Shown here piece after piece: positions 8,496-50,243 of a stretch of 61,771 bases of DNA; the stretch's first letter is position 1, and each line of letters starts with the position of its first letter. The translations under genes were made by a program, and so were the position numbers. The stretch is from Ruminococcus sp. GTDB lineage: Bacteria; Bacillota_I; Bacilli_A; RF39; UBA660. The notes beneath the pieces were generated by a model. The model saw nothing but the letters and a program-made list of their open reading frames with translations. It did not search any database and was not told the origin of the DNA. Location: contig JAMPHW010000002.1 of the NCBI GenBank assembly GCA_023663235.1, positions 1 to 61,771 of the forward strand. The letters are read 5' to 3'.

Positions 8496-8524
8496 ATTAT
8501 AATATTATGCTTAGCACTTGTCAA
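8496..8524 (-). promoter_or_regulatory. SigA-type promoter of the hrcA operon
   Basis: Minus strand TTGACA (8519-8524), a 17 nt spacer, then TATAAT (8496-8501). Confidence 0.85.
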
Positions 8525-19935: not shown

Positions 19936-20824
19936 TTTTCTTGCCTCCCGCTCTTTTAATAAAAGCTTCTTCCAAAGTGAGAGTTTCTTTAACTACTTCA
20001 TAAACTAAAATATCATTTAAAACTAAGTCTTTGATAAATAAGGCTATATCACTCTCTTCTTTTATGACTTCTATATGATTATCATCTATAATTCTATCCT
20101 TATCACTTAAAAATTTTAAAATATTTTCTATATCACTTACTTTAATAATATATTTATTATCTTTAACTTCTTTTATTTTATCAATTGTATTTTCTTCAAT
20201 TATTGAACCTTCTGATATAATACATACTTTATTACAAAAACTTTCAAGTTCACTAAGATTATGACTAGATATTAAAATGCCCATTCCAAGTTTCGCTAGC
20301 TTTTGTAAAAGATTACGTAAATCTTTTATTCCTTCTGGATCTAAGCCATTAGTAGGTTCATCTAAAATAAGTAATTCTGGACTATTAATTAAAGCGATAG
20401 CAAGTCCTAGCCTTTGTCTCATGCCTAAAGAGTATTTGCTAACTTTATCATTTATTCTCTCTTCTAGGCCTACTAAAGAAACAAGCTTTAATATATCTTC
20501 GTCTGTTACACGAGAATATAAATTAGCCTGCAATTTTAAATTCTCGAAACCTGTTAAATACATATAAACATCAGGAGATTCTACTATAGCTCCAACTTTG
20601 CTTATAGCTTTAACAAAATTCCTTCTTATGTCATAGCCATTTATCAAAACTTTTCCTGAACCTTTTTGAAGTCCCAAAATACATTTAATCGTTGTTGTTT
20701 TACCAGCGCCATTAGGACCAATAAAAGCTAGAATATCCCCTTTATCAATTTCAAAAGAAACATCCTTTAAAATATATTTTTTACCAAATTTTTTTGATAA
20801 ATTTTCTACTTTTAAAATATTCAT
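19928..20824 (-). CDS. ABC transporter ATP-binding protein
   Basis: Walker A GPNGAGKTT, signature YSLGMRQRLGLA, Walker B LILDEPT. ATG 20824 is preferred because the ORF-track TTG lies in the RBS GAAAGGAAAT. Confidence 0.92.
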   Translation of the reverse strand: MNILKVENLSKKFGKKYILKDVSFEIDKGDILAFIGPNGAGKTTTIKCILGLQKGSGKVLINGYDIRRNFVKAISKVGAIVESPDVYMYLTGFENLKLQANLYSRVTDEDILKLVSLVGLEERINDKVSKYSLGMRQRLGLAIALINSPELLILDEPTNGLDPEGIKDLRNLLQKLAKLGMGILISSHNLSELESFCNKVCIISEGSIIEENTIDKIKEVKDNKYIIKVSDIENILKFLSDKDRIIDDNHIEVIKEESDIALFIKDLVLNDILVYEVVKETLTLEEAFIKRAGGKKID

Positions 20825-20892
20825 ATTATTTCCTTTCAAATAGCGGAAGCGGTTAAATATAATATAACATAAAAAAAGAATAAGAACAAGTT

Positions 20893-20923
20893 AAAGAAAA
20901 AGTAGACTAAAATTAATCTACTT
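20893..20923 (-). terminator. Rho-independent terminator directly after the topA remnant
   Basis: Minus strand AAGTAGA-TTAATTTTAG-TCTACTT followed by TTTTCTTT. It starts 3 nt after the remnant stop codon. Confidence 0.65.
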
Positions 20924-20925
20924 AA

Positions 20926-21250
20926 TTATTTACTTTCTTGTTCTAAAGTTCTTACTAAAGCCATTACTTGCTCTAATTCTTCACATAATATTTTTTATTT
21001 TTTGTAACTAATAAATTTTTACAGTTAGGACATATTTCTCCTGTTGGCTCATACCAAGTTGCATACTTACACTCAGGAAAATTACTGCACCCATAAAATA
21101 CTTTGCATTTTTTAGTGTGCCTTGCCACTATTTCGTGTTCACATTTAGAACATTTTCCATAGCTTTAAGTATAATTAACAAAATATCACTTAAACAAGTC
21201 AAATCTGTGCGCATATAAGTAATCAAACCTATTATCTCATTATTCAATTA
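20926..21250 (-). pseudogene. topA: Decayed second copy of topA: 5'-truncated, with a ~0.9 kb internal deletion and a frameshift
   Basis: 20977-21166 aligns to topA 23961-24151 with 6 substitutions and a 1-nt deletion. 21178-21248 aligns at ~85% to topA 25052-25126 (GLITYMRTD segment). Translation gives ..IIGLITYMRTDLTCLSD.. and ..YGKCSKCEHEIVARHTKKCKVFYGCSNFPECKYATWYEPTGEICPNCKNLLVTKNKK.. in different frames. Confidence 0.9.
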
Positions 21251-21287
21251 TAAGTATAACAAAAAGTAATTATTATATCTACTAATT

Positions 21288-22280
21288 TTAATTATCAGTA
21301 CGTTTTCTATTTAATTCTCTCCCTATTTCATTAAACTCTGGAGCATTAGTAAAATCAATCTCAATTCTACAATCGTCGTCATATTCTTCAACATAAGCAA
21401 TAATAGGATTATGAAAAATACCTTTCTGAGCAAGTTTTAATCCATCATAACTACTATTATGAGAAACACTCTTATCAAACTCACGTTCTTCCATTCCAAG
21501 TTCTCTAATAACATGCGTTTTTATATAATGATAAAAATAACCTAGACATGGATAATAATCAGAATAATTTTCAAAATTCTGGTCATCATATTCTTCTAAT
21601 AAATCCTGCTGTTGCTCTGATAAATCCTCAAAAGTTATTTGCCCTTTAGACATTTGTGTTTGCAGTTCATTAGCACTTCTAATATTATCCAAAACATTTT
21701 TAAAACCAGCAGAATAGAGTAACACTCTAGTAAGAATATTATATAGTAAAACGATTTCGTTTATTTCTTTTTCTGAATAACTATCAAATTTATTAGCCAA
21801 CCCCTTATCCTTAAGATAAGCTTCATGCATAAATTCATTATATCTTTTCACAATATTTGGAATATTTACTTCTGATAAATCAATCTCATCTTTAATAGCA
21901 TAATCAAGATTATTTAAGTCATAAGGTTCTGCTAAATAGTTTATTCTATATAAAGCATTTGCCATACACATTTCATTAAATAAATATAATACAAAATTCA
22001 ATGAAACAATTCGTTGATATTTACTATTTTCAAAATCCCATTTACCAACAGAAGGTTGAACATAATTAATAAAAATCCCATCTACAAATTGAACTCTTGC
22101 TAAAATTCCATTTCTTTCTGTAGAATAAATAATTCCATTTTTTGATAAAGTATAAAATAATAATTTTAAATAATCATTTAATAGCAAATCAAAACTATCA
22201 TATTTTGAACCCCTAAGTTCTGCTTCTCCAAATTCCTCTGGGTATTTTCCAATAATACTTATTGTATTAAAATTGTCCAT
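21288..22280 (-). CDS. Hypothetical cytoplasmic protein (330 aa), second gene of the topA-associated cassette
   Basis: Clean ORF with RBS GGAGAT, 5 nt after the upstream stop. It has no TM or signal peptide and no motif I recognise, plus an acidic stretch EDLSEQQQDLLEEYDDQNFENYSDYY. Confidence 0.7.
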   Translation of the reverse strand: MDNFNTISIIGKYPEEFGEAELRGSKYDSFDLLLNDYLKLLFYTLSKNGIIYSTERNGILARVQFVDGIFINYVQPSVGKWDFENSKYQRIVSLNFVLYLFNEMCMANALYRINYLAEPYDLNNLDYAIKDEIDLSEVNIPNIVKRYNEFMHEAYLKDKGLANKFDSYSEKEINEIVLLYNILTRVLLYSAGFKNVLDNIRSANELQTQMSKGQITFEDLSEQQQDLLEEYDDQNFENYSDYYPCLGYFYHYIKTHVIRELGMEEREFDKSVSHNSSYDGLKLAQKGIFHNPIIAYVEEYDDDCRIEIDFTNAPEFNEIGRELNRKRTDN

Positions 22281-22285
22281 ATCTA

Positions 22286-23869
22286 TTATCTCCTTCCTAA
22301 ATTAGAACCATCAGTAGGTGCATCTTCTGGTGATATTTCATAATTAAGAACAAAACCTTGATTTAATAAATTATTTTCTAAAGCTGCTTTTTTAGCTTCA
22401 GGCGTTAAATGTGCATAATTATCAAGCATTAATATCAACGAATTTGGTTCTCCTGGAATCTCTTCCTTTAACCCTGATGTTAATACATAATAACAAATAT
22501 TTTTGACTACTTCTTGTACTCTTTTGCTTAAAAAATGATAAAATTGATATCCATAATTAGAACCCTGTAAACACTCAACTTTACCTGAAAGTATATAGTT
22601 ATACGCATATAAAACATATTCTAAAAGACTTTCTCCTGTATAAAAAGTGCGATATATAACTTCATAACAATAAGCAAAAAGATTATTTACTGGTAAAATA
22701 TGAGGGTCAACTTCTAATATAAATTGTTTAGCTGAAGTTTTTAAATATCCTAATCCCTCAATGGTACCAAATCTCTCTAAATAAGACTTTAATAAATTCA
22801 TAGATTGAAGGGCATTCGCTTTAGAATTAAGTTTAGAAGCTCTTATTCTCTCTTTTATAGTCTTACACTTATATACTTCTTTATTATCTACTATAACTCT
22901 TAAAATAAAGTAATTATCAGCATCTTCAATATTAAAATTTGGCATTTCAATACCATTAGTGTCCACAGCATTCTCTAAATTAATAGTACCAAAATCACGA
23001 ATAGAACAACCTCTTTTCAAAGATGTTAATGTACCTTTTATTTTTCTTAAGATAGGCTTCCCATCTCCACCAATTACATAGAAAGAAACTGTCATTTCTT
23101 TACCAACAAATGTCTCAAAAATTTCTCTCATCCGATCATAATCTTTTGAGCTATATATCTTATTATTACATTTTTGCTCTTCTTCTCTTAACTCAGATAC
23201 ATAGTCAAAATTATATCCTCCGAGCCATGAACTAATTTTTTTAAGTTCTTCGCCACTATTAATAATGCAATTATACTCTTTTTCTAGTTCTTTTTTGTTT
23301 CTATATAAGGCAATGGCATCCTCATCAGTTTGAGCATTAGCAGTATGCAAAAAAACTAAAGTATCAAAAGTAATTTGTTCTCCCTTTTGTTCTAGATAAC
23401 ATAAAACGCTATAATTCTCAGCAAGAACTCTTCCTAAAGGTAGACCTAATTCTTGGAAATGAATTAACTTTTTTATTACTTCTTCCGTTTGTGATCTAAA
23501 AAGTATACTATCTAATTCTGTAGAGTTTATTTTCTTTACTTTTGAAGACATAGTCCAAGTTAAATCATTAAGGCAATTATAAGTATCTTTATTTATTACT
23601 AAACCATGCATTTCTGCTAAAACTAAAAAATCATAAATTTCTCCTACATAATTCGTATTTACCCCATTTTGATGCCAAGTTCTAAAATTAGGCAAAATTT
23701 CTTCCTTAAATTTTTTAATACTAAGATTATCTTTTTCTAATCCTGCTATCCAATGGACTATAATATAATCAGTACACAAAGCTAAATCTTCATTATCAGA
23801 AAAAAAGCCTAATTCTTTAGCAATATTAATATATTTAGAATTTTCTCTAACGGCTTTATAAAATTCCAT
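22286..23869 (-). CDS. Hypothetical cytoplasmic protein (527 aa), first gene of the topA-associated cassette
   Basis: Clean ORF. The start is taken at ATG 23869 (MEFYKAV.., RBS AAGGGGG) because the ORF-track start at 23923 is the TTG of the -35 box. No TM, Walker A, HExxH or HTH recognised. Confidence 0.7.
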   Translation of the reverse strand: MEFYKAVRENSKYINIAKELGFFSDNEDLALCTDYIIVHWIAGLEKDNLSIKKFKEEILPNFRTWHQNGVNTNYVGEIYDFLVLAEMHGLVINKDTYNCLNDLTWTMSSKVKKINSTELDSILFRSQTEEVIKKLIHFQELGLPLGRVLAENYSVLCYLEQKGEQITFDTLVFLHTANAQTDEDAIALYRNKKELEKEYNCIINSGEELKKISSWLGGYNFDYVSELREEEQKCNNKIYSSKDYDRMREIFETFVGKEMTVSFYVIGGDGKPILRKIKGTLTSLKRGCSIRDFGTINLENAVDTNGIEMPNFNIEDADNYFILRVIVDNKEVYKCKTIKERIRASKLNSKANALQSMNLLKSYLERFGTIEGLGYLKTSAKQFILEVDPHILPVNNLFAYCYEVIYRTFYTGESLLEYVLYAYNYILSGKVECLQGSNYGYQFYHFLSKRVQEVVKNICYYVLTSGLKEEIPGEPNSLILMLDNYAHLTPEAKKAALENNLLNQGFVLNYEISPEDAPTDGSNLGRR

Positions 23870-23893
23870 AAAAGACCCCCTTAAATGTCTTTT

Positions 23894-23923
23894 ATTATAA
23901 CATATGATGATATTATTTGTCAA
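23894..23923 (-). promoter_or_regulatory. Consensus SigA promoter of the two-gene cassette
   Basis: Minus strand TTGACA (23918-23923), an 18 nt spacer, then TGTTATAAT (extended -10, TATAAT at 23894-23899). It lies 19 nt after the topA stop. Confidence 0.8.
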
Positions 23924-23942
23924 TTTTTACAAAAAGAAAAGA

Positions 23943-25967
23943 CTACTTAACGTAGCCACATTCTTCACATAATACTTTTTTATTTTTTGTAACTAATAAA
24001 TTTTTACAGTTAGGACATATTTCTCCCGTTGGCTCATACCAAGTTGCATACTTACACTTAGGAAAATTACTGCACCCATAAAATACTTTACCTTTTTTAG
24101 TGTGCCTTGCCACTATTTCGTGTTCACATTTAGGACAGTTTCCATAGCTTTTTGTTTCTTTTTCATCTTTTTTTACATAGTTACAGTTAGGATAATTAGA
24201 ACAAGCAACAAATTCTCCATATTTACCACTTCTAACAACTAAATCACTACCACACAGAGGACAAGACTCTCCTGTTTTTTCAGGTTCTTTCTTTTCCATT
24301 TCTTTAAACGCTTTTTCCACTAAAGGAGCAAACTCTTGATAAAAATTAGTTAATACTTCAATATTATCTTTTTTATCATCAGCTATTTCATCAAGTTCTG
24401 TTTCCATATTAGCTGTATATTCAACATTTACTATTCCACTAAAGAACTCTTGTAATTTATCAGTTGTTTCTATCCCAATATCAGTTGGATAAAACTTTTT
24501 ATCTTCAATTTTAACATAGCCCCGGTCTTTAATCGTTTTCATAATCGTTGCATAAGTACTTGGTCTACCTATTCCTAAACTTTCCATTTCCTTAATTAAA
24601 CTTGATTCTGTGTATCTTGGAGCAGGCTTAGTAAAGTGTTGGAATTTCTCTATTTTATCAGCAGCAATAACATCACTTTTATAATTTTTAAAGTCTGGTA
24701 AAATAACATCTTCGCTATCTTCAAATTCTTTATAAACCTTTAAGTAGCCATCAAACTTTAAAACACTTCCTGATGCTTTAAATTGATATCCATTATTTTC
24801 TAAAGTTACAGTAGTTGCTAAAGTTTTAGCATTACTCATTAAATAAGCTAAAGTTCTTATATAAATTAAACGATATAACTTATATTCATCAGCACTTAAA
24901 TATTCTTTTAAAGACTCTGGAGTACGCATAATACTAGTTGGTCTTATTGCTTCGTGAGCATCTTGAGCTCCCTTAGGTTCCTTTGATGCTTTAACTCCAC
25001 CTACATATTCTGGTCCATAATTATTTTTAATATAACTTTTAGTATCATGAACAAAAACATCACTTAAACGAGTTGAATCTGTACGCATATAAGTAATTAA
25101 ACCAACCGTTTCATTCCCTATATTCATACCTTCATATAATTTTTGAGCTATTTGCATTGTTTTACTTGAAGAAAAATTAAGACGATTTGCTGCCATTTGT
25201 TGTAAAGTTGAAGTTCTAAAAGGATCTTTTGCTTTTTTTAACTTTTCTTTTTCTTCTACATTTTCTATCTTAAAAGACTTAGATAATTTATTTAATATCT
25301 CATCAGCTTCTACTTCACTATTAATTTCTATTTTTTTATTATGGTATTTCTCAAGTTCGGCTTTAAATTCTTTAAAATCAGCTTCAATAGTCCAATACTC
25401 TTTAGGAATAAAAGCTAGTATTTCCCTTTCTCTATCAACTATTAATTTAAGTGCTACTGATTGAACACGTCCAGCACTTTTACCACCAGTTTTTCTTTGC
25501 ATTAATTTACTTAATCTAAATCCAATAATACGATCTAGCATTCTTCTTGTCTCTTGACTTTTAACTAAATCCATATCTATTTTACGTGCATTATTTATTG
25601 CATTTACTACAACATCTTTGGTTATTTCATTAAAAACAACCCTTTCATAATCATTATCTTTTAAAGCAAGCTCATCATATAAATGCCATGATATAGCTTC
25701 TCCTTCACGGTCAGGGTCTGTTGCAAGTATTACTTTATCGCTTTCTTTAGCCATTTTCTTTAAAGCTGAAATATCTTTTTTCTTTCCTGTTATTGGAATA
25801 TAATTAGGTTTAAAATCATTTTCTATATCAATTCCTAAACCATATTTTCCAGTTGTTGCTAAATCCCTAATATGTCCTTTACTAGATACTACTTTATAAT
25901 CTTCCCCTAAATACTTTTCAATCGTTTTACTTTTTGCAGGTGATTCTACAATTACTAATTTACTCAT
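23943..25967 (-). CDS. topA: DNA topoisomerase I
   Basis: 674 aa with a Toprim N-terminus (LVIVESPAKSKTI, DPDREGE), an active-site Tyr segment (GLITYMRTDSTRLS) and three C-terminal Cys4 zinc ribbons. Confidence 0.97.
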   Translation of the reverse strand: MSKLVIVESPAKSKTIEKYLGEDYKVVSSKGHIRDLATTGKYGLGIDIENDFKPNYIPITGKKKDISALKKMAKESDKVILATDPDREGEAISWHLYDELALKDNDYERVVFNEITKDVVVNAINNARKIDMDLVKSQETRRMLDRIIGFRLSKLMQRKTGGKSAGRVQSVALKLIVDREREILAFIPKEYWTIEADFKEFKAELEKYHNKKIEINSEVEADEILNKLSKSFKIENVEEKEKLKKAKDPFRTSTLQQMAANRLNFSSSKTMQIAQKLYEGMNIGNETVGLITYMRTDSTRLSDVFVHDTKSYIKNNYGPEYVGGVKASKEPKGAQDAHEAIRPTSIMRTPESLKEYLSADEYKLYRLIYIRTLAYLMSNAKTLATTVTLENNGYQFKASGSVLKFDGYLKVYKEFEDSEDVILPDFKNYKSDVIAADKIEKFQHFTKPAPRYTESSLIKEMESLGIGRPSTYATIMKTIKDRGYVKIEDKKFYPTDIGIETTDKLQEFFSGIVNVEYTANMETELDEIADDKKDNIEVLTNFYQEFAPLVEKAFKEMEKKEPEKTGESCPLCGSDLVVRSGKYGEFVACSNYPNCNYVKKDEKETKSYGNCPKCEHEIVARHTKKGKVFYGCSNFPKCKYATWYEPTGEICPNCKNLLVTKNKKVLCEECGYVK

Positions 25968-26610
25968 TTTCTTTTCCCTTTCTTAAAGTATCTATTACTT
26001 CTAGCCATTTTTCTTCATTTCCTATCCAAAAGTTTGGATTAATATTCTCACTATCATCATCTTTATTAATATCATTAAAATAATATTCAATTATTTTTAA
26101 ATTTTTACATATATCTATTTCTAATTTAGGCTCTTCTATTAATCTATTTTGAATATTAATTAAAGTTATATTTTTATTAGGAAACAAAAGACCAATTGCT
26201 TTTAAAAAGCTTTTAAGTTCTTCTAAATTAACATTTTGATTAGTAAGCATTGCTATATTTCTAGCTTCTTTAATATGTTCTTTTAATCTATTGTATCTTT
26301 TTTGCATTAATTTTTTACAATTAAGAATTGCTGCCCCAATGTCTTCATCCTCTTTTATATGATGAGCAATAATTATCCCGTTATTATCTTTAATTCTTTT
26401 TAAACCTGGAATATGCCACTCTTCACTTACATCTTGAAAACTATTTAAAAATACATTAAAATCACTTTCAAAAAGCCTCAAAACAGTTTTCAAATCTGTG
26501 CCTAGCCAATCAAAAGGATAAGCATAAGTTCTAAGGCCAGTTAACGTAAGATAATAGGCTGGTCTGCAAAAAGGACCTATACTAAAAACTAAATCATATT
26601 TATTAACCAT
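25960..26610 (-). CDS. DUF1796-like (putative papain-like cysteine peptidase) protein
   Basis: 216 aa. The N-terminus FSIGPFCRPAYYLTLTGLRTYAYPFDWL matches the SxGxxC...PFDW pattern I associate with DUF1796. Confidence 0.5.
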   Translation of the reverse strand: MVNKYDLVFSIGPFCRPAYYLTLTGLRTYAYPFDWLGTDLKTVLRLFESDFNVFLNSFQDVSEEWHIPGLKRIKDNNGIIIAHHIKEDEDIGAAILNCKKLMQKRYNRLKEHIKEARNIAMLTNQNVNLEELKSFLKAIGLLFPNKNITLINIQNRLIEEPKLEIDICKNLKIIEYYFNDINKDDDSENINPNFWIGNEEKWLEVIDTLRKGKENE

Positions 26611-35129: not shown

Positions 35130-35263
35130 TTTATCTCCTTTCAAAATATAATAACTATTCATCTAGCAATTCTATTTCCTATTTAATTATATCATGCGAA
35201 CATATATGTGTCAATTTATACTTTAAATATCAATAAAAAAACACTCATTTTTAAAAGAGTATT

Positions 35264-44208: not shown

Positions 44209-44292
44209 AAAAAGCCACTCCTTAACCTGTATTAATTATAATATTTTTTAGGTTATTTTGTCAATCTATAGTATAAAAGAAATGTAAACAAA

Positions 44293-50083: not shown

Positions 50084-50243
50084 ATTTGCTCCTTTAATAA
50101 GCAAATCCGGATTATTTTAGAAATTTCTAGCTTATACATTTATTATATTCTTGAATATTATATTTGTCAAGAAAATTGTTCTTATTTATTCGAACAATTA
50201 TAAACTATTTAAATACTATGAGAAGATTTTATTAGGTGATATT

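Follow-up and report, generated by a model that had tools for sequence, protein, structure and literature searches.

The AbiL, AbiE and PDC cassettes of low-GC bacteria are the closest described counterparts of the locus analysed here, a pair of genes that we call A and B on the minus strand (21288-23923) of a 61,771-nucleotide (nt) stretch of contig JAMPHW010000002.1 from Ruminococcus sp. (assembly GCA_023663235.1); the window denotes this whole stretch. Like those cassettes, A-B is a compact, self-promoted two-gene operon, patchily distributed and horizontally mobile, in a variable spot between core genes. The likeness extends to its company: relatives of the pair adjoin an AbiLi/AbiLii system at one locus (L091; the loci that we collected carry L numbers) and a PDC-M30B/M41B-like gene at another (L003), and AbiE fills the same site after topA in a sister species (L019). 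Unlike them, A-B bears no sequence relation to any PADLOC v2 model and has no ATPase, nucleotidyltransferase or nuclease domain. We conclude that the pair is, with high confidence, a real, selected and mobile two-gene module. Reading from sequence, we tentatively rank a function in genetic conflict or defence first, at a probability of roughly 0.35, because of the pair's mobility, its hotspot location, its cargo position beside Abi systems and its faster evolution.

The cassette and its boundaries comprise the following features.

23894 to 23923, minus strand: cassette promoter, TTGACA (23923-23918), an 18-nt spacer and TG-T-TATAAT (23902-23894), read from the sequence as a perfect sigma-70 consensus with an extended -10
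23876 to 23882, minus strand: ribosome-binding site (RBS) of gene A, AAGGGGG, read from the sequence
22286 to 23869, minus strand: gene A, an open reading frame (ORF) of 527 amino acids (aa) with its ATG at 23869 and its end at 22286, placed by ORF, RBS and homologue N-termini
21288 to 22280, minus strand: gene B, a 330-aa ORF with its ATG at 22280 and its end at 21288, after a 5-nt gap from A
23941 to 23957, minus strand: terminator-like hairpin over the topA stop codon followed by a T-run, separating topA from the cassette (terminator scan)
20892 to 20922, minus strand: weak AT-rich hairpin (AGTAGA..TCTACT) followed by TTTTTCTTT, read from the sequence

An earlier note on this DNA had described the promoter (TTGACA, 18 nt and an extended -10 at 23894-23923), the ATG at 23869 with its RBS, and the step across 5 nt and a second RBS from a 527-aa into a 330-aa frame; all of these are present in the sequence as it stated. 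A mechanical ORF list opens gene A at a TTG at 23923 (545 aa), inside the -35 element; ATG 23869 is the better start because it has an RBS and agrees with the N-termini of aligned homologues. The RBS of gene B, GGAAGGAGA, sits within the final codons of gene A, and from this placement and the 5-nt gap B is predicted to be translationally coupled to A. The C-terminal tails of A proteins are basic, reading G-R-R, G-R-K or K-R-G-G (22286-22300 on the minus strand of the window, and homologues). Since the tail codons GGA AGG AGA double as the RBS of B, what keeps this tail conserved may be the RBS and not the function of the protein.

The hairpin and T-run across the topA stop codon make the cassette its own transcription unit, and an identical hairpin and T-run close topA in relatives with an empty site. 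On the far side, the hairpin at 20892-20922 is the first terminator-like structure 3' of B and lies just ahead of the promoter region of an ABC transporter. With fewer than three G-C pairs it was left unflagged by the consensus scan, and L007 becomes alignable to the window again at about 20902. An Rfam scan of 20600-24300 returned no RNA family. The cassette promoter is the sole 12/12 site with a TG within 20700-24300 by consensus scan. Across the whole window, perfect TTGACA-N16-18-TATAAT sites number 5 against 0.13 expected, a count that 0 of 100 shuffles reached, and comparison with the ORF list places all 5 immediately upstream of gene starts. The cassette promoter exceeds chance, and transcription from it is predicted to start at about 23887.

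Evidence for a recurrent unit came from relatives of the pair. A forms 4 clusters and B 5-8 clusters among 5.8 billion proteins, and an exhaustive profile search of 1.84 billion representatives recovered 15 clusters of B. GC content lies at 24-30% in every locus recovered, and those relatives that carry a name are metagenome-assembled genomes (MAGs) of uncultured gut Bacilli or Mollicutes-like bacteria. Orphan gene pairs are common in MAGs. The earlier note had proposed checking whether homologues of the two genes co-occur: A (483-673 aa) stands directly upstream of B (266-337 aa) in 12 of 13 informative loci (L001, L002, L003-5, L006/L007, L088/89, L090, L091, L092, L094, L095 and L097), with gaps or overlaps from -17 to +5 nt, and the identities of A and of B to the window proteins drop in parallel across loci. 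An extended -10 (TGnTAnAnT), often accompanied by TTGACA, precedes A in every locus that could be read upstream (L001, L003-5, L006, L090, L091 and L092). The window and L003 differ in context, and their nucleotide sequences become similar from 5 nt ahead of the -35 element onwards. Together with the kept extended -10, this start defines the mobile unit as promoter, A and B, about 2.65 kb without a recombinase of its own. The loci that hold this unit are otherwise unrelated to each other and belong to low-GC lineages. Two loci depart from the pattern: in L093 (4875-5750) a distant B-like gene of 291 aa stands alone after pheS-pheT on a contig with no A-like sequence, and in L001 (1169-2736) A is split into ORFs of 43 and 483 aa, its N-terminus frameshifted or truncated. 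The most distant A homologue (673 aa; L088, 7978-9999) has a Lys- and Glu-rich insertion of ~60 residues right after its beta-barrel domain and is extended at its C-terminus by ~80 residues.

The strict two-gene architecture with its predicted translational coupling, the patchy distribution, the lone B-like gene in L093, the truncated A in L001 and a cargo position on an integrative mobilizable element adjoining an Abi system would also suit a selfish addiction or toxin-immunity module, in which one protein is harmful and the other neutralises it, stabilising the carrier DNA or mobile element. We consider this improbable. At 527 and 330 aa, A and B lie far above the ~100-aa toxin scale of type II toxin-antitoxin modules, and they are without a helix-turn-helix (HTH) or ribbon-helix-helix (RHH) antitoxin-like domain or a known toxin domain. 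Even at E<=1, no HTH, RHH or toxin family in Pfam or NCBIfam was found across 9 and 17 family members. A match to the immunity family Imm3 (E 0.068) came from one member only and was not reproducible across the family, and the promoter is without sign of autoregulation.

We next consider the site, since the cassette lies between topA and the ABC transporter in the window. A topA protein search returned 80 species representatives. Every one is a MAG of an uncultured, low-GC gut bacterium, and the labels Bacilli, Mycoplasma or Tenericutes cover the majority, 'Mycoplasma sp. CAG:776' and Candidatus Caccenecus being examples. With topA identities peaking at 88-90%, the set probably does not include the window's own species. 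In ~12 of the closest species (L008, L010, L016, L022, L028 and others), topA is followed within 70-270 nt by the window's ABC-transporter operon, and the intergenic DNA is only the topA terminator and the ABC promoter. A or B is encoded in 0 of the 80 topA loci, and an A-profile scan of the genome contigs was also without a relative. The cassette is thus accessory, as related species have topA directly followed by the ABC transporter. Other species carry other inserts at this junction, located by reading each locus.

L019, 5627 to 10545: 4.9-kb insert encoding an 802-aa fn3 surface protein, a 180-aa ORF and an AbiEi/AbiEii pair
L027, 6437 to 6979: insert with one small ORF
L032, 5637 to 6230: insert with one small ORF
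L059, 5868 to 6539: insert with one small ORF

The single ORFs of L027, L032 and L059 span 180-223 aa, and no small ORF at the junction, including that of L019, matched Pfam or PADLOC. Different inserts across sister species make the topA/ABC junction a variable hotspot in the genus, which the present locus documents. On inspection, the N-terminal sequences of the L027 and L032 ORFs (180-197 aa) resemble that of the 180-aa ORF of L019; the 223-aa ORF of L059 is different.

The cassette also occupies this site in two metagenomic contigs, both nearer to the window than is any of the species representatives: L006 (81% nucleotide identity; order topA, A, B) and L007 (78%; order A, B, ABC). Synonymous divergence (dS) is 0.74 for A vs 0.72 for the adjacent topA, and 0.80 for B vs 0.87 for the ABC ATPase. 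Because these values match the flanks, the cassette is old in its small clade, vertically inherited and co-diverged with its surroundings, and the insertion is not recent. Ratios of nonsynonymous to synonymous divergence (dN/dS) of 0.24 for A and 0.28 for B show that both genes are real and under purifying selection; they evolve faster than the flanking core genes (topA, 0.056; ABC ATPase, 0.17). The GC content of A and B, overall and at third codon positions (GC3), equals host values.

A and B belong to no described sequence family, by Pfam, NCBIfam, PHROGs, PADLOC v2.0.0 and PDB. Scans of the window proteins and of every family member returned no Pfam, NCBIfam, PHROGs or PADLOC family, and four profiles found no PDB sequence match, in keeping with the earlier reading of two proteins without recognisable domains. 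Scattered one-member matches at E >0.003 (rSAM XyeB, Imm3, RimP_C and Flagellar_rod) were rejected as noise, and the idea that A and B are paralogues was dropped after a profile-profile comparison gave a probability of 2.8%. The literature yielded nothing specific on the A-B pair. Both proteins are soluble and acidic (isoelectric points of 5.4 for A and 4.6 for B). Neither has a transmembrane segment, as had been read by eye: the top 19-residue hydropathy is 1.2-1.3. The family alignments of A and B contain no conserved Asp/Glu/His/Lys constellation, and this lack of conserved catalytic-type residues argues against a conventional hydrolase or transferase.

Structure prediction with AlphaFold and Foldseek, which the earlier note had proposed, gave a confident model for B that is without a match in PDB or BFVD and a model for A, built from 4 sequences, that is confident only in a barrel. 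This barrel corresponds to the beta-rich middle that had been noticed in the large protein. Along A, the predicted layout runs from a helical N-terminal region through a central Sm/SH3-like beta-barrel (~255-335) to a helical C-terminal region that is conserved (EKFGTIEGLAYL...LPxNNLFAYCFE). The top Foldseek matches of the barrel were 6am0_D (Edc3 LSm, E 0.019), 1m5q_A (archaeal Sm, E 0.048) and 6bk8_o (E 0.099), at probability 1.0 and target-normalised template-modelling (TM) scores of 0.43-0.70; it also aligned to ribosomal-protein chains (L19-like) and to the WYL domain of BrxR (E ~0.8). A profile of the barrel domain had no sequence match among PDB sequences. As in Sm/LSm and WYL barrels, the central 75-90 residues of A are predicted to form a five- or six-stranded small barrel. 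In contrast to Sm/LSm proteins, A shows no Sm1 or Sm2 motif, and its barrel is set within ~450 residues of unassigned helical protein. In contrast to BrxR-like WYL regulators, A is without a winged HTH or WCX module and has no HTH or WYL Pfam match, and BrxR aligns to the barrel only.

The model of B, built from 17 sequences, reached a mean predicted local distance difference test score (pLDDT) of 84 and a predicted TM score (pTM) of 0.84. It places an alpha/beta head (helix 30-47, a three-stranded meander 50-74 and a strand 89-92), which bears the family signature YSTxRNGxLAxV..NYVQPxIGKWDF..YQRxVSPDFVLYLFN, before a bundle of long helices and a C-terminal beta-hairpin. As modelled, B stands apart from solved and viral structures: Foldseek returned no match from PDB or BFVD, the best values being E 0.27-0.35 and TM <=0.4. 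Claudin-design, sliding-clamp, SAVED and XLF structural matches (best E 0.27-0.35) were rejected. An XRCC4/XLF-like head-and-stalk was likewise set aside, its best XLF match, 2qm4_D, having E 0.6, probability 0.03 and TM 0.09-0.13. The order of predicted secondary structure suggested a PD-(D/E)xK nuclease core in the B head; this was rejected, as the head has no conserved acidic or Lys residues. Such a confidently modelled protein without a PDB or BFVD neighbour is notable whatever its function.

A barrel of predicted Sm/LSm/L19-like fold also invites a cellular explanation: a lineage-restricted complex without a role in conflict, such as an RNA- or nucleoid-associated scaffold that would bind nucleic acid through A and be gained and lost sporadically in small-genome gut Bacilli. 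We regard this as possible, if doubtful. It would be consistent with the absence of a catalytic motif, with a composition identical to that of the host, with vertical inheritance in the clade at dN/dS ~0.25, and with neighbours that are mostly housekeeping (alr, smpB, RNase R, pheST and topA). The strong promoter shares its class with those ahead of hrcA and a DivIVA-like gene, two of the genes downstream of the four other perfect promoters in the window; the remaining two encode a GNAT acetyltransferase and a 479-aa protein without a Pfam match. These promoters were found by the TTGACA-N16-18-TATAAT scan.

8496 to 8524, minus strand: perfect promoter
35186 to 35214, minus strand: perfect promoter
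44235 to 44264, minus strand: perfect promoter
50142 to 50170, minus strand: perfect promoter

The one beside hrcA apparently serves the hrcA heat-shock operon. Several observations argue against such a cellular complex. The pair is missing from almost all sister species, including 80 of 80 species representatives; it occupies different loci in different lineages with its own promoter; it is cargo on a mobilizable element (L091); gene A is broken in L001; and evolution of the pair is faster than that of flanking core genes.

Returning to a function in conflict or defence, we examined the neighbourhoods of the pair. At L091 it has the integrase, Mob_Pre relaxase, AAA_25 and HTH genes of an element on one side and the AbiLi/AbiLii system on the other. 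The stretch L091 226-10244, with its tyrosine integrase, Mob_Pre relaxase, AAA_25 and HTH regulator, looks like an integrative mobilizable element; ends, attachment-site (att) repeats and a tRNA were looked for around it and none was found. Between the HTH gene and the A promoter (L091 5231-5310) there are two tandem 40-nt repeats, each with an inverted repeat AACGAAAA..TTCGTTTT, which could be operators or terminators. At L003 (2847-4449), the immediate downstream neighbour of the pair is a DUF5131 gene that matches two PADLOC candidates, PDC-M30B and PDC-M41B (E 5e-28); next come a methyltransferase with a mad2-like region and then a NUDIX gene and a DUF1003 gene. Thus 2 of ~9 independent contexts adjoin PADLOC-matched genes (AbiL at L091; the PDC-M30B/M41B-like gene and mad2-like region at L003). 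Along with AbiE at the same site in L019, the AbiL and PDC-like neighbours are a hint of defence-island association, not statistically secure at ~9 contexts.

Other neighbours are varied: a transglutaminase-like gene and DUF2207 (L001); an ABC exporter and a LysR regulator (L002); a formyltransferase, asparagine synthase (asnB) and RNase R (L088); alanine racemase (alr; L094); smpB (L097); and a histidine kinase and a secreted protein (L095). The earlier note's proposal of a conflict module stands in part. The pair is indeed compact, self-promoted and accessory, it recurs at unrelated loci, and some of these have Abi or PDC neighbours; set against the proposal are the lack of a PADLOC match, the mostly housekeeping neighbours, the absence of relatives from phage, plasmid and IMG/VR sequences, and the lack of a catalytic residue set.

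Further points weigh against a conflict function. Seven of the ~9 independent neighbourhoods hold housekeeping or miscellaneous genes only, and 2 defence-adjacent contexts of 9 is weakly above chance (p ~0.1 by a rough binomial that assumes ~6% background adjacency). A PADLOC search had been suggested as a check, and no model matched A or B in four different pairs: PADLOC-DB v2.0.0 gave 0 families at E<=1 for the window A and B, and 0 at E<=0.01 for the L091 pair, the L088 pair and the A of L097. No ATPase, nuclease, TIR, SIR2 or other effector signature was found in A or B, and in both families most of the residues that never vary are hydrophobic or aromatic. On the structural side, the A model has a mean pLDDT of 51, with block means of 66-89 over ~230-350 and below 60 in the rest, and the Sm-like matches of its barrel have E values of only 0.02-0.8 with no sequence-level support. 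The promoter is predicted to be strong and constitutive, and high expression is not specific to defence. Finally, vertical, stable inheritance in the clade fits any useful accessory function.

Taken together, the cassette is a self-contained accessory module in which two translationally coupled genes follow a promoter predicted to be strong and constitutive, and the products of the two genes most likely form a cytoplasmic complex. In our leading reading this module would act in genetic conflict, most likely against phages or mobile elements. A would be the sensing subunit, its Sm/SH3-like barrel (the ligand- or nucleic-acid-binding fold of LSm, Hfq and WYL) lying between two helical domains, and B the partner that executes the response or passes it on. 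As no obvious set of catalytic residues is kept in either family, we favour, as speculation, a response in which a phage or host component is bound stoichiometrically or sequestered, rather than one based on enzyme activity. The full proposal is that A-B is a new anti-phage or anti-mobile-element system of uncultured small-genome gut Bacilli, made of two undescribed families (the fold of one being absent from PDB and BFVD) with no recognisable enzymatic effector, an Sm-like sensing barrel and stoichiometric binding; we hold it to be uncertain and rather unlikely in all its parts. A true conflict system here would add a defence mechanism without a known enzymatic module, from a major uncultured gut group (gut Bacilli or Mollicutes-like MAGs) whose phage interactions are almost unstudied. 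As a clean, very small family with constant operon structure, A-B is tractable for structure determination and heterologous testing.

How the cassette came to lie beside topA bears on one further explanation. The earlier note had spoken of a topA insertion, and this setting was borne out by a direct repeat of the topA 3' end on both sides of the cassette.

23943 to 25967, minus strand: topA, intact, 674 aa, with Toprim, Topoisom_bac and zinc-ribbon domains (Pfam match; end-to-end alignment with relatives)
23960 to 24151, minus strand: upstream arm of the direct repeat, within intact topA (self-comparison)
20976 to 21166, minus strand: downstream arm of the direct repeat, which is topA pseudogene fragment 2 (topA nt 1817-2008), 96% identical with a 1-nt deletion (self-comparison)
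21159 to 21229, minus strand: topA pseudogene fragment 1 (topA nt 865-936, the GLITYMRTD region), 71 nt, 85% identical to the resident gene (alignment)

The repeat is 191 nt long and its arms are 96-97% identical. As in site-specific integrative elements, the flanking direct repeats derive from the target gene, and as in 3'-end integration hotspots, the cassette sits exactly after the topA terminator, flanked by a repeat of the gene's 3' end. The differences are that the window cassette has no integrase or recombinase gene, that the repeat arm belongs to a composite, internally deleted topA pseudogene and is no short att core, and that the closest relative with the cassette (L007) is without the repeat. 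A and B are the only ORFs of at least 60 aa between the arms (a 2,985-bp arm-to-arm segment), and by ORF list and Pfam this segment contains no integrase, recombinase, transposase or relaxase.

The 191-nt repeat on both sides, together with a homologous pair on the integrase- and relaxase-bearing element of L091, could suggest that A and B are what remains of a mobile element or prophage that has decayed (they might be replication, partition or structural genes) and that was brought into the topA 3' end by integration, the repeat being an att-like scar. This seems to us quite unlikely. Besides the segment's lack of integrase, transposase and relaxase, no relative of the pair was found in 50,697 phage records or 72,556 plasmids (tblastn of B) or in IMG/VR (scans with both A and B profiles), and there was no meaningful PHROG match. 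L007 carries the cassette without a topA remnant, and purifying selection acts on both genes, whose age equals that of the clade.

The upstream topA is intact; the downstream copy at 20976-21229 is a decayed, composite and internally deleted topA pseudogene. Its two fragments are joined at 21159-21166, and its tail is non-native, reading ..CEELEQVMALVRTLEQESK before the stop. A simple Campbell-type single-crossover integration through the topA repeat was rejected: the native end, ..CEECGYVK before the stop, which is common to relatives, follows the upstream arm and not the downstream one. Because the two pieces are unequally diverged (85% vs 96%), we infer that gene conversion with the live topA probably keeps the 3' piece of the pseudogene similar. 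The cassette may have entered between topA and the ABC transporter in the ancestor of the small clade formed by the window, L006 and L007, in an event that would also have left the partial topA duplicate.

On the other side of topA, a 216-aa gene (25960-26610, minus strand) separates topA from an LtaS-like sulfatase-domain gene. It shares 8 nt with the start of topA and has a weak match to DUF1796 (putative papain-like peptidase). The 80 related loci yielded no relative of this gene, and in them the LtaS-like gene and topA stand 25-110 nt apart; topA in the window is thus flanked on both sides by lineage-specific genes.

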